From IMG/VR virus record IMGVR_UViG_3300045988_132604: a stretch of 41,286 bases of DNA; one strand, given 5' to 3'. The stretch's first letter is position 1. The number at the start of each line of letters is the position of its first letter. Source of the DNA: a virus. Positions 9,604 to 39,066 of the stretch are shown one piece after another. The notes under the pieces were generated by a model that had not been told where the DNA came from, did no database searches, and worked only from the letters and a program-made list of their open reading frames with translations. A program made the translations under genes and the position numbers.

Positions 9604-10016
9604 AGGAGCTTATCATCACCCTTGCTTCCGTAATCGGCTTTGGCGACGTGCTGGTCAAGACCGGCCGGCTACACCAAGAGGACGAGGACGCAGCAAAATT
9701 GATGATGGGCGCAGCCACCACGATTTCACAGCACCTCTTGCAGGGGCGGGACGCGGAGCAAGTGACGGCCTTGCAGCGTCAGGCGGGATTTTACGAGATT
9801 ATCGCCGTACCTAAGACCTCGGCGCGGATAGACAAGGAGTTTTATATCTGCCCGCGCGAGGACTTTGAATCACTGGTGATAGACGATTTTTCAAACCCTT
9901 GCCCGTTCTGTGAATTGGAGGGCAAGGAGGTGCGCAAATGCGGCCGCCGCAGGGCACTGATACGGTGCGGCGTGGTCGGGAATACGGAAGGCGAATGCCC
10001 GTATAAGGGAATATAA
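9576..10016 (+). CDS. Hypothetical protein with the shared Cys-rich C-terminal module
   Basis: AAGGAG RBS. C-terminal EDFESLVIDDFSNPCPFCELEGKEVRKCGRRRALIRCGVVGNTEGECPYKGI is 51/52 identical to the C-terminus of the next gene. Confidence 0.65.
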   Translation: MGAYINKDLKELIITLASVIGFGDVLVKTGRLHQEDEDAAKLMMGAATTISQHLLQGRDAEQVTALQRQAGFYEIIAVPKTSARIDKEFYICPREDFESLVIDDFSNPCPFCELEGKEVRKCGRRRALIRCGVVGNTEGECPYKGI

Positions 10017-36430: not shown

Positions 36431-36715
36431 ATGACAATGACTAACGAATTTTTTACTTGGGCGGTGCTTTTGACCTATGCGGGAGCGACCCTTGCAACCA
36501 GCCTTGTAACCCAGCTTATCAAGGGTGCAGGCTTTATCGACAAAATTCCCACGCGCCTGACCAGCTACATAATCGCGCTTGTGGTGCTTATAGCCGCCAC
36601 CTTTTTCACCGGCGGCCTGACCCTTGAGGCGGGTGCGCTGTGCGTGATAAATGCCGTGGTTGTGTCCCTTGCCGCCAATGGCGCGTATGATGCCATAGCC
36701 CGCGACCGGAAGTAA
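36431..36715 (+). CDS. Holin (three predicted TM helices)
   Basis: 94 aa. Hydrophobic segments FFTWAVLLTYAGATLATSLV, YIIALVVLIAATFFTGGL and GALCVINAVVVSLAANGAY, with a charged C-terminus. Confidence 0.65.
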   Translation: MTMTNEFFTWAVLLTYAGATLATSLVTQLIKGAGFIDKIPTRLTSYIIALVVLIAATFFTGGLTLEAGALCVINAVVVSLAANGAYDAIARDRK

Positions 36716-36782
36716 GCTTGCCGCCGCCCCTCTGCGACACTAAAAATGTCGGAGGTGATAGGCCGATGAGAAGCCGGCCTGT

Positions 36783-37022
36783 GTGGTGGACAAAAATATT
36801 TTGCAGACCCTATCCCGTGCGGAGTGGGAAGGGATAATCTATCAGCGGATTTTCTGTGAGCGCGACCGCTGGCTTGTGGCGCGTCACCTGCTGGATGGTG
36901 TGCCGTATGACCGCTTGACGGCGGAGTATCAGGCGCGGTACACCGATGCGCCGCTGGAGTATGACCAAATCCGCCGCCGATACAAGGCAGCGGAGAGAAC
37001 CCTTATAAAATATGCCCCCTGA
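36783..37022 (+). CDS. Small HTH-like protein (sigma region-4-like); start unresolved
   Basis: GTG start with no RBS. RWLVARHLLDGVPYDRLTAEY is region-4-like. An ATG at 36766 with a good GGAGGTGA RBS lies one frame off, joined across the A5 run at 36792-36796. Confidence 0.45.
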   Translation: MVDKNILQTLSRAEWEGIIYQRIFCERDRWLVARHLLDGVPYDRLTAEYQARYTDAPLEYDQIRRRYKAAERTLIKYAP

Positions 37023-37041
37023 TGGGGGCTTTTTGTTTTTT
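37014..37041 (+). terminator. Intrinsic terminator ending the late/lysis transcript
   Basis: gccccc tgat gggggc followed by tttttgtttttt. The stop codon lies in the loop. Confidence 0.8.
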
Positions 37042-37047
37042 GGGGGC

Positions 37048-37076
37048 TTGACATATGCTTGATGTTGTGGTATTTT
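37048..37076 (+). promoter_or_regulatory. Promoter of the repeat-mimic RNA cassette
   Basis: TTGACA (37048-37053), 17-nt spacer ending in TGg, TATTTT (37071-37076). The predicted start lies about at the first base of repeat unit R1. Confidence 0.6.
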
Positions 37077-37082
37077 AATAAT

Positions 37083-37173
37083 GTCATCCGGCAACGGATG
37101 AGGATTGAAATATTTAATTTTTCGTTTTTGCGTCTGGGACGCATGCCACCCGCTTGCGGGTGTGGATTGAAAC
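37083..37173 (+). CRISPR. Mini-array-like unit: two diverged type I-C-like CRISPR repeat mimics flanking a 33-nt spacer-like segment
   Basis: R1 37083-37111 gtcatccggcaacggatgaggattgaaat. R2 37145-37173 gccacccgcttgcgggtgtggattgaaac. Each has a 6-bp stem and tetraloop, then exactly 11 nt ending GGATTGAAAY. 20/29 identical, with a compensatory stem change. The spacer-like segment is atttaatttttcgtttttgcgtctgggacgcat. No cas genes in the window. Confidence 0.55.
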
Positions 37174-37182
37174 ATTATTTAT

Positions 37183-37206
37183 CTTTGGTGGGGTTTCAAA
37201 CCAAAG
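37183..37206 (+). ncRNA. Hairpin in the 3' part of the cassette RNA
   Basis: ctttggt / accaaag 7-bp stem. The loop ggggtttcaa contains GTTTCAA, which is complementary to the TTGAAAC of the R2 handle. Confidence 0.4.
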
Positions 37207-37238
37207 AAAAAGATGCACCGCAGTGTATCTTTTTTTTC
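37207..37238. terminator. Bidirectional intrinsic terminator shared by the cassette (+) and the 37341 gene (-)
   Basis: aaaa agatgcac cgca gtgtatct tttttttt. 8-bp stem (one G:U), with an A-run 5' and a T-run 3'. Confidence 0.8.
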
Positions 37239-37340
37239 TTTCCCCCGGTTATTTCACCCAACCCCAAAGATTTATCCAGTTTTTGGGACAAATTATCCGG
37301 TACATATAGGGCGGTATTGCCGCCCCTTGTCCTCTGCGCC

Positions 37341-37625
37341 TTAGCGGTTCAGCGTCTCGGCAGCGTGCTTGGCTACTGCCGCGTCATAGGCGGATTCGCA
37401 ATCCTCGTAGCTGTCAAAGTCTATATTCAGCTCATAGCACAGCGCCTCGACAAGATTCGGCTCCCACTCGGCATCGTCGTCTATGGCCGCTATAAGCTCA
37501 TCTGCCGTAGCCGTGCGGACTTCGCTGCGGGGGAAGTCTTTTTCCGCTACCCGCCACATGGGGATAAAATCTTCGCCATACTGCTCGCGGGTCTCGGTGC
37601 CTTCAATCGCTTTGTAAACCTTCAT
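37341..37625 (-). CDS. Small highly acidic protein (94 aa)
   Basis: GGAG RBS. About 24 D/E versus 9 K/R by my count. Driven by its own copy of the duplicated operator-bearing promoter. Confidence 0.75.
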   Translation of the reverse strand: MKVYKAIEGTETREQYGEDFIPMWRVAEKDFPRSEVRTATADELIAAIDDDAEWEPNLVEALCYELNIDFDSYEDCESAYDAAVAKHAAETLNR

Positions 37626-37626
37626 T

Positions 37627-37723
37627 TTTTTAACTCCCTTCGGGGCTTTGGCCCCTTGCTTTATCGTGGCTTTATTATACCATAGGTATATACCTACGTC
37701 AAGGGGTTTTTGCAGATTTTTTG
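37627..37723 (-). promoter_or_regulatory. Duplicated promoter-operator-leader element, copy A
   Basis: On the minus strand: TTGACG (37702-37697), a 17-nt spacer containing the perfect palindrome TAGGTATATACCTA (37683-37696), TATAAT (37679-37674), a leader hairpin ggggc-caaa-gcccc and the RBS. Nearly identical to 38972-39066. Confidence 0.8.
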
Positions 37724-37888
37724 ATTTTTTATGTCGGCGCGTATCAGGCCCTTGATATATCCTTGCGTGCTGGGCACATCGGCAAGACGGGCGAGGATGT
37801 CGCCATCTGTGCCGATGTTAAGCTTAAGGTATATGCCCTTGGTGCTTTTTTTGTCGTAGCGGGCTTGCCGCTCAAATTTTTTTTTCAT
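37694..37888 (-). CDS. Ribbon-helix-helix (Arc/CopG-like) protein, candidate operon autoregulator
   Basis: Start at MKKKFERQARYDKKSTKGIYLKLNIGTDGDILARLADVPSTQGYIKGLIRADI (beta-strand then two helices). ATGA overlap with the upstream gene. The last about 10 codons run into promoter copy A. Confidence 0.6.
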   Translation of the reverse strand: MKKKFERQARYDKKSTKGIYLKLNIGTDGDILARLADVPSTQGYIKGLIRADIKNQKICKNPLT

Positions 37889-38971: not shown

Positions 38972-39066
38972 TTTTAACTCCCTTCGGGCTTGTTGCCCTT
39001 GCTTTATCGTGGCTTTATTATACCATAGGTATATACCTACGTCAAGGGGTTTTTGCAGATTTTTTG
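38972..39066 (-). promoter_or_regulatory. Duplicated promoter-operator-leader element, copy B
   Basis: TTGACG (39045-39040), the palindrome TAGGTATATACCTA (39026-39039), TATAAT (39022-39017) and the leader hairpin gggc-aacaa-gccc. Confidence 0.8.

Follow-up and report, generated by a model that had tools for sequence, protein, structure and literature searches.

Why would a phage that encodes no cas genes carry a short cassette made of a promoter, two imitations of a type I-C CRISPR repeat, and a terminator? The question is raised by the viral sequence IMGVR_UViG_3300045988_132604, the 41-kb stretch of DNA analyzed here as a whole (the window), to which coordinates refer unless another locus is named; numbers preceded by L denote fetched loci. 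A preliminary description of the window had proposed either a viral mini-array loading the host effector with a phage-chosen guide or repeat decoys titrating Cas5d/Cascade. Comparison with host loci and related phages indicates that the cassette is probably a type I-C "Cracr array", i.e., a source of two-guide phage RNAs that resemble CRISPR RNAs (crRNAs) and mimic the host RNA CreR. The phage-chosen guide thus held in outline, with a site at the host cas5c-cas8c-cas7 promoter, rather than other phages, as its likely target.

In the accessible parts of the preprint that describes them, Cracrs are viral CreR/CreA mimics lying on viruses or plasmids outside CRISPR-cas loci, in which the hairpin and handle of the cognate repeat are retained and the spacer-like part has at least nine matches proximal to the protospacer-adjacent motif (PAM) at the promoter of cas or creT genes; many occur as stacked arrays targeting variants of one CRISPR type, and nine two-spacer I-C arrays were predicted, with experiments covering types V-A, I-E, and I-F and the I-C examples being predictions only (bioRxiv 10.1101/2024.10.29.618823). 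Earlier work had already reported CreR elements in hosts and regulatory mini-arrays in viruses (10.1101/2023.03.10.532045; PMC10120712). A different kind of RNA anti-CRISPR (Racr) was validated experimentally for type I-C, namely RacrIC1, a solitary repeat mimic of a Bifidobacterium prophage co-transcribed with acrIC5 (Camara-Wilpert et al., 2023, PMC10651486).

Cassette anatomy and type I-C repeat mimicry

Direct reading of positions 36700-37800, a promoter scan, an inverted repeat search, and folding recovered the parts of the cassette where they had originally been placed (Table 1). The genes of the window include those for an integrase, a DEDDh exonuclease, an SPP1-type portal, and an NlpC/P60 endolysin, and it represents the genome of a temperate siphovirus-like gut phage. 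No match to six Cas proteins was obtained in it by tblastn, and with phage genes present and cas genes absent the cassette lies on a virus outside any CRISPR-cas locus, in agreement with the earlier view of a self-contained, phage-borne promoter-terminator unit.

The two repeat-like units, R1 and R2, each consist of a 6-bp hairpin followed by (A/T)GGATTGAAA(T/C), i.e., the GC-rich hairpin and 11-nt 3' tail ending in GGATTGAAAC/T that characterize type I-C repeats and correspond to the handle of the Cas5c/Cas5d product. Their handle motif GGATTGAAAY is identical to that of the host I-C repeat and of the repeat-like unit in host creR described below, so that hairpin and handle of the cognate repeat are retained in both units, and R2 additionally has CTTGCGGG and TGGATTGAAA in common with one variant of the host repeat, GTCGCTCCCCCTTGCGGGGAGCGTGGATTGAAAT. 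The earlier assignment of the units as type I-C mimics with an 11-nt handle was therefore upheld by sequence, fold, and host repeat comparison. Chance is an unlikely source of the pair, since GGATTGAAAY occurs exactly twice in the 41-kb window, on the same strand and both times in the cassette, compared to a mean of 0.23 in shuffled sequences (0/100 reaching two). The mimics are shorter than the genuine repeats of the I-C arrays compared (29 vs. 32-34 nt, with a stem of 6 vs. 7 bp).

The two 29-nt units are 20/29 identical and 62 nt apart, and the true repeated unit is 34 nt long (ATG..GGATTGAAAYATT; 74% identity over 34 nt). Their single stem difference is indeed compensatory (U:A to C:G), and both units are conserved over the 13 haplotypes presented below; nevertheless, covariation support is weak because this is the sole covarying pair and is not significant alone. 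Folding of the predicted 159-nt transcript gave the expected hairpins (z = -5.0 vs. shuffles), and no Rfam family was detected at gathering thresholds across the whole window. The post-handle sequences of both units are homologous to each other (ATTTGATTTTtcGTTTT after R1 and ATTTGATTTTagGTTTT after R2) and to those of relatives, and guide 2 begins ATTATTTATCTTTGG, with a 6-nt insertion relative to the unit-2 guides of relatives. The complementarity of the GTTTCAA loop to the handle, noticed at the outset, was reproduced as an anti-handle in guide 2 facing the R2 handle. The cassette terminator was absent from the simple terminator-scan list, probably because its T-run belongs to an extended stem, and the preceding operon terminator, which forms the left boundary outside the cassette, is kept in relatives including the cassette-less MT835524.1.

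Table 1. Features of the cassette and its surroundings in the window, with the basis of each assignment.
Feature	Position	Strand	Basis or remark
Intrinsic terminator of the preceding plus-strand operon (79-aa open reading frame after the lysis genes)	37014..37029	+	Terminator scan: GCCCCCTGATGGGGGC then TTTTTGTTTT
Sigma-70-type promoter, TTGACA-17-TATTTT, extended -10 TG	37048..37076	+	Promoter scan 10/12 with TG
ACATAT direct repeat, left copy	37051..37056	+	Flanks ~250-bp presence/absence polymorphism
Predicted transcription start	~37083	+	First base of R1; predicted from sequence
Repeat-like unit 1 (R1/psiR1), GTCATCCGGCAACGGATGAGGATTGAAAT	37083..37111	+	Sequence, fold, alignment of 13 unit variants, pair counts
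R1 stem, GCAA (GNRA) tetraloop	37085-37090/37095-37100	+
R1 11-nt handle, AGGATTGAAAT	37101-37111	+
Guide 1 (psiS1), 33 nt, ATTTAATTTTTCGTTTTTGCGTCTGGGACGCAT	37112..37144	+	Positions 1-19 = 37112-37130, complementary to host target T1
Internal hairpin within guide 1	37129-37143	+
Repeat-like unit 2 (R2/psiR2), GCCACCCGCTTGCGGGTGTGGATTGAAAC	37145..37173	+	Sequence, fold
R2 stem, CTTG tetraloop	37147-37152/37157-37162	+
R2 handle, TGGATTGAAAC	37163-37173	+
Guide 2 (psiS2, "b" type), ATTATTTATCTTTGGTGGGGTTTCAAACCAAAG	37174..37206	+	Contains the anti-handle
R2 handle/anti-handle arms, 11 nt	37163-37173 and 37193-37203	+	91% complementary
Terminator hairpin, 15 bp, loop CGCA, ending in T-run	37204..37237	+	Inverted repeat search, fold
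Conserved tail of the inserted segment, 64 nt	37238..37301		Alignment; kept in most relatives that carry the cassette; absent in the second genomic context (L136/L141)
ACATAT direct repeat, right copy	37302..37307	+	Flanks of relatives diverge directly 3' of ACATATAGGGCGG
Gene for convergent 94-aa acidic protein	37341-37625	-	No Pfam/PHROG family; marginal PDB hit only
36-nt element, TAACTCCCTTCGGGGCTTTGGCCCCTTGCTTTATCG	37631-37666		Recurs upstream of small minus-strand genes

Host type I-C locus and its creR circuit

The host link was obtained through a type I-C locus from metagenome contigs. GTDB representative genomes were scanned with the handle plus a degenerate seed pattern (GWGGATTGAAAYATYTRNYTTT), and the 44 hits were mostly ordinary array spacers or chance matches with no prophage copy of the cassette among them; the pattern was too strict because it excluded GGGGATTGAAAY handles, which were later found in L190-L195. 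One useful hit was an I-C creR in a Gammaproteobacteria metagenome-assembled genome (L169, CBDBDW010000002.1), where one repeat-like unit lies between cas3 and cas5c, with a spacer-like segment and a terminator hairpin behind it and a target flanked by TTC 70 nt upstream. The hit L163 was rejected, as GGATTGAAAT is there part of an ordinary promoter. Applied to metagenome contigs as a stringent pattern, the L169 architecture gave a single hit, L189, a complete I-C locus comprising cas3, cas5c, cas8c, cas7, cas4, cas1, and an array of 82 repeats.

The L189 array repeats end in GGATTGAAAC/T (also written GCGTGGATTGAAAC/T) and the host creR unit in (A/G)GGATTGAAAC/T, so that a I-C system with GGATTGAAAY-ending repeats does exist in the host range. 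Midway through the array the repeat variant switches from 47 copies of ...CTCGTGGGGAGCGTGGATTGAAAC to 35 copies of ...CTTGCGGGGAGCGTGGATTGAAAT (minus strand), paralleling the C-ending handle of R2 and the T-ending handle of R1; the early suggestion that two diverged units might match two host repeat variants is thus consistent with an array carrying both ...GAAAC and ...GAAAT. Spacers matching the phage group numbered 43/82 (at least 90% identity over at least 28 nt, against partial group sequences), with 22 perfect over at least 33 nt in some group member and 24 matching the window itself, where the PAMs included TTC (11), TTT (5), and TTG (3). L189 therefore stems from a host of this phage lineage, one whose I-C system targets the phage heavily; TTT or TTG in place of TTC at several window protospacers may represent PAM escape. 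Half of the window protospacers (12/24) lie in the first 2.6 kb (298-2526) over the integrase and exonuclease genes and the others at 9866, 12124, 15636, 17413, 18837, 20951, 22877, 23012, 23919, 36708, 37631, and 40862.

Before L189 was found, the spacers of ~1,700 I-C array units from fetched loci had given nothing convincing against the phage group, and a search of IMG/VR for the host promoter motif returned 0 hits. Exact protein look-ups with the integrase and with a 440-aa open reading frame beside the portal gene returned only phage-sized contigs (at most 50 kb). The nearest named relative of the portal is that of Acutalibacter phage Fontainebleau (39%), and the host is therefore probably a member of the Oscillospirales.

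The L189 cas3-cas5c intergenic region contains a promoter reading into cas5c (TTGACA-17-TAATAT, with TG) and, on the opposite strand, a creR composed of a promoter (TTGTAT-17-TATACT), a hairpin with GGATTGAAAC, a spacer-like segment (ATCTATTTTTATGTTTTAGC...), and a terminator hairpin. Two TTC-flanked targets are present: T1, which begins 2 nt away from the cas5c promoter's -35 and matches creR over 18 nt, and T2, which overlaps the creR -35. Six further loci (L190-L195), retrieved by Cas5c homology only, contain the same module with different T1, T2, and creR alleles. As in the cassette, the creR promoter adjoins the repeat-like hairpin directly. The host hairpin is weak (5 bp with a 6-nt loop), and in its fold (L189 11344-11367) the handle pairs with guide positions 11-19 in a manner similar to the R2 handle and anti-handle; such pairing may mask the handle or may merely follow from the target sequence. 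Other I-C loci with a creR-like unit between cas3 and cas5c are L169, whose guide (ATTTGATTTTATGTCTTAGC) resembles the guides of the gut host and phage, and L198, with an antisense unit and an unrelated guide, while upstream of cas5c L068 contains an antisense handle. It is therefore possible that CreR is common in type I-C.

Guide-target matching and the probable mechanism

Type I Cascade flips out guide positions 6, 12, and 18. Matches were consequently scored over pairing positions 1-19 without these three, i.e., 16 positions. Guide 1 of the window (guide a) matched T1 of L194/L195, next to a TTC PAM, at 15/16, with mismatches to TTC followed by ATTTATTTTTATGTTTTAG at positions 6, 11, 12, and 18 and with positions 1-5 and 7-10 matching; it thereby has the nine or more PAM-proximal matches to a host CreR target at a cas promoter that are expected of a Cracr. 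Guides at unit 2 of relatives reached 16/16, namely guide h (L093/L121) against T1 of L189 and guide f (L025) against T1 of L190-L193, and guide i (L131/L138/L140/L142) reached 15/16 against T2 of L189. Mismatches at positions 12 and 18 were present in all guides and at position 6 often, and the phage guides and the host guide have different bases at the non-pairing positions 12 and 18. The fetched DNA, 1.74 Mb, contains 162,607 TTY-flanked sites, all 9 of those scoring at least 15/16 were cas3-cas5c intergenic targets, and the best site for guide 1 was T1 of L194/L195. Complementarity ends at approximately position 19 in host CreR and phage guides alike, which fits binding without cleavage.

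Variation among relatives is concentrated in the guide seeds. The sole GenBank relative, MT835524.1 (L001) from human faeces and with no host recorded, has flanks that are ~91% identical and lacks the cassette, its junction reading GGCTTGACATATGC joined directly to GGGGCGG in accord with a ~250-bp indel flanked by ACATAT. IMG/VR and assembly look-ups yielded ~30 related contigs that bear the cassette, including 13 distinct two-unit haplotypes, a second genomic context (L136/L141), single-unit forms at the same locus with the same promoter and terminator (L131, L140, L142, and the R1/R2 recombinant L135), and decayed copies with handle or stem mutations (L132, L199, L093, L138). Over the 13 haplotypes and both contexts, the promoter (nucleotide diversity, pi = 0.05), repeats, hairpins, handles, and terminator are conserved, diversity being lowest in R2 (pi = 0.02) and highest in the guide 2 region (pi = 0.25-0.37). 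Seed diversity was 0.13 in unit 1 and 0.37 in unit 2 vs. 0.02-0.05 in the repeats, promoter, and 3' two-thirds of guide 1; variation falls approximately in the first 10 nt after each handle, and guide 1 is variable at positions 1-12 (the seed) and conserved at 13-33. Within one cassette the seeds of the two guides are always unlike, and seed variants are shared between the two positions.

These features suggest a mechanism in which the constitutive promoter would start transcription at R1 and give an RNA of about 155 nt containing R1, guide 1, R2, guide 2, and the terminator. Host Cas5c would cut at the 3' base of each hairpin and leave 11-nt handles of the form (A/U)GGAUUGAAA(U/C), the processed species beginning AGGAUUGAAAU and UGGAUUGAAAC; R2 would provide guide RNA 1 with its 3' hairpin and guide RNA 2 with its 5' handle, and the terminator hairpin would be the 3' hairpin of guide RNA 2. 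Host Cascade assembling on these RNAs would be led by guide 1, pairing through its first 19 nt only, to the TTC site abutting the -35 of the cas5c-cas8c-cas7 promoter, i.e., the site of host CreR autorepression. Because the pairing is partial, Cascade is proposed to bind there without recruiting Cas3, which would tighten repression of the effector operon while the cassette RNAs also compete with antiviral crRNAs. The outcome would be protection of a temperate phage under heavy targeting by the host array, and the anti-CRISPR role suggested at the outset is judged probable.

Several observations weigh against this mechanism. At pairing position 11, guide 1 and its best allele are mismatched, and a perfect allele for this guide, which would read ATTTA.TTTTT, was not recovered. 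No acceptable target for guide 2 was found among the host loci compared, the window's b type giving weak matches only where the position-2 guides f, h, and i of relatives reach 15/16 or 16/16, and the R2 handle can be sequestered by the guide 2 anti-handle. Two leads for guide 2 were rejected, an 11-nt identity to the 5' untranslated region of L189 cas5c, which is offset by 3 nt and leaves the seed mismatched, and a seed identity of 9 nt to the cas3 promoter in its -35/spacer region, where the PAM is AAC/AGC. Some host T1 alleles have a TTT rather than a TTC PAM, and L189 was found with a pattern built from phage seeds and so carries ascertainment bias, which does not apply to L190-L195. Recognition by Cas5c of 29-nt mimics with a 6-bp stem, compared to the host repeat of 33-34 nt and 7 bp, is assumed, and since a host CreR of the same specificity is already present any benefit to the phage must come from dosage. 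Single-unit and decayed variants occur (L131, L135, L132, L199, and the truncated L143), and the ~208-nt creR/target/promoter module is missing altogether from the commonest host allele (Cas5c P0121, 876 index blocks; L200-L209), with the cas3 stop 21 nt from the cas5c start and flanks 96-97% identical to L190. Loss of the module may be host escape, and in such hosts only a decoy effect or competition for Cas proteins is possible.

That allele favors a pure Racr-type decoy, in which the mimics would only draw Cas5c and Cas7 into aberrant complexes, without any targeting role of the post-handle sequences, as do RacrIC1, the single-unit versions with the same promoter and terminator, and a solitary unit on the unrelated contig L133. 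The cassette also resembles a Racr in having its own promoter within 250 bp and similarity to the host repeat in sequence and structure. Nevertheless, a Racr is a solitary mimic without a target-matching spacer, while two units were found here with guides matching PAM-flanked promoter sites, and even the single-unit variants still carry a target-matching guide (type i). Titration would leave unexplained both the 15-16/16 matches to such sites with mismatches at 6, 12, and 18 and the concentration of variation in the seeds beside a conserved 3' guide 1. Sequestration belongs to the Cracr model anyway, so that titration of Cas5d/Cascade as originally envisaged may contribute, and a decoy acting by titration alone is considered unlikely.

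Cassette decay and a repeat-spacer-repeat layout suggest two other origins, both with far less chance of being correct. A non-functional relic of host CRISPR or creR DNA picked up by the phage would account for the presence or absence of the cassette among close relatives and for the decayed copies; however, conservation of its parts across haplotypes and contexts argues against it, as does the derivation of both loops from extra-stable tetraloop classes (GNRA, CUUG), with GNRA retained in L133 and L199, and the dissimilarity of promoter, stems, and terminator to host creR implies that no recent raw capture took place, making this reading very improbable. Slighter still is the chance of a viral mini-CRISPR array against competing phages or plasmids (superinfection exclusion), in which Cascade-Cas3 would cleave a full protospacer. 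The 33-nt spacer has the typical type I-C length, many IMG/VR contigs contain two-repeat I-C mini-arrays, and inter-viral mini-arrays are described in literature cited by PMC10120712. Conversely, the repeats fall short of the near identity of a bona fide mini-array, and exact-pattern searches of IMG/VR, which would miss mismatched protospacers, located 23 nt of guide 1 and 20 nt of guide 2 inside cassettes only, with no phage in GenBank other than MT835524.1 matching the region. Exact cores thus gave no fully matching mobile-element protospacer in IMG/VR or GenBank, and the homology of guide 1 to the post-R2 sequence and to host CreR spacers indicates that it was not acquired from a mobile element.

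Related elements, known systems, and significance

Beyond the phage group, the unrelated viral contig L133 (IMGVR_UViG_3300045988_156273) carries on its minus strand at ~5163 a solitary unit (CACCCG-GGAA-CGGGTG-TGGATTGAAAT) that has a TTGACT-17-TAGACT promoter and a terminator of its own and a different post-handle sequence (AATAACTAAAACAGCG...), and is probably another I-C Racr or Cracr. Two-repeat I-C-like mini-arrays in IMG/VR (L002, L005, L021, L045, L060, L061, L072, L085, L088, and others) have an upstream repeat that is degenerate except for the handle and a canonical downstream repeat, and some of them may have a regulatory (Cracr-type) and not an inter-viral role. L017, L027, and L050 (IMG/VR, 111-188 kb) contain long I-C-like arrays whose period is 72 nt, together with a Cas5c homologue in L017 and L050 (31-37% identity); these may be phage-encoded I-C-like CRISPR-Cas systems, and the repeat stem of L017 and L027 (CATCC...GGATG) resembles that of R1.

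Next to the cassette, most relatives have an additional 89-aa gene, which separates it from the gene of the convergent 94-aa acidic protein. An anti-CRISPR function of the latter is possible, without support from Pfam, PHROG, and PDB comparisons, and the suggestion that the adjacent small acidic proteins provide an anti-defence context was likewise not borne out by them. The 36-nt element upstream contains a hairpin, covers the ribosome-binding region, recurs partially near 38975-39009 and in up to three copies in MT835524.1, and is at 37631-37666 a perfect protospacer of host (L189) spacer 72.

The kinds of cassette to which this one can be compared (Cracr arrays, viral regulatory mini-arrays, and Racrs) are already known, and the cassette itself is without a verifiable earlier listing. 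Inter-viral mini-arrays likewise place repeat-spacer-repeat units on a cas-less virus and rely on host Cas proteins; the spacers of those presented by Faure et al. and Medvedeva et al. in 2019 are reported to match related viruses fully, in contrast to the partial match of the cassette at a host cas promoter. Host CreR (L189-L195, L169, L198) shares with it the GGATTGAAAY handle, a promoter abutting the hairpin, a T1 match of ~18-19 nt, and a terminator hairpin as 3' end, and differs as a single antisense unit with a weak hairpin in the cas3-cas5c spacer compared to two units with strong hairpins in the phage.

As described for Cracr arrays, the cassette lies on a Caudoviricetes genome, combines two different guides in one transcription unit whose last guide ends in a rho-independent terminator, and shows two different seeds per cassette with seed types recurring at either position (bioRxiv 10.1101/2024.10.29.618823); it differs in the reduced size of its mimics (29 nt, 6-bp stems, stable tetraloops), in their strong divergence from each other, and in guide 2, for which no convincing target was found. 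The I-F1 prophage mini-arrays of Shmakov et al. (2023) are similar as viral autoregulatory copies that target cas promoters with guide mismatches at 6 and 12 and show presence/absence polymorphism among hosts, and dissimilar in subtype, in hosts (Pseudomonas, Acinetobacter, Moraxella), and in lying inside Acr (anti-CRISPR) loci (PMC10120712). Racrs too are phage small RNAs that mimic the I-C repeat and engage Cas proteins (PMC10651486); they act by sequestration alone, whereas the cassette has its own promoter and is without a recognizable acr partner.

Distinctive of the cassette are the unusually complete pairing of host and phage, the streamlined mimics (29 nt, GNRA/CUUG), and the clear allele matching of seeds with host targets. 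Within the arms race considered next, guide 2 could be a further innovation in view of its 6-nt insertion, its handle-masking anti-handle, and its 9-nt identity, within the seed, to the cas3 promoter, where the PAM is other than TTC. More tentatively, with the balance of probability somewhat against it, an arms race may be envisaged in which phage seeds diversify in tracking I-C target alleles, hosts delete the creR/target/promoter module (the commonest allele), and the phage streamlines its mimics to minimal hairpins with stable tetraloops, guide 2 being possibly self-masked or directed against the cas3 promoter.

If the Cracr interpretation is true, the cassette would provide a natural and well-anchored case of an RNA anti-CRISPR by which type I-C Cascade is directed at its own promoter, and since the phage, host locus, spacers, target, and matched guide and target alleles have been identified, the system is directly testable with synthetic DNA. 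The 29-nt hairpin-plus-handle would also be a compact scaffold that might serve I-C CRISPR-interference tools. Hypervariable phage seeds together with the presence or absence of the host creR module would open a view on the population genetics of counter-defence, and gut phages bearing such cassettes may infect or lysogenize hosts with many matching spacers, which bears on spacer-based host prediction and on phage therapy design.

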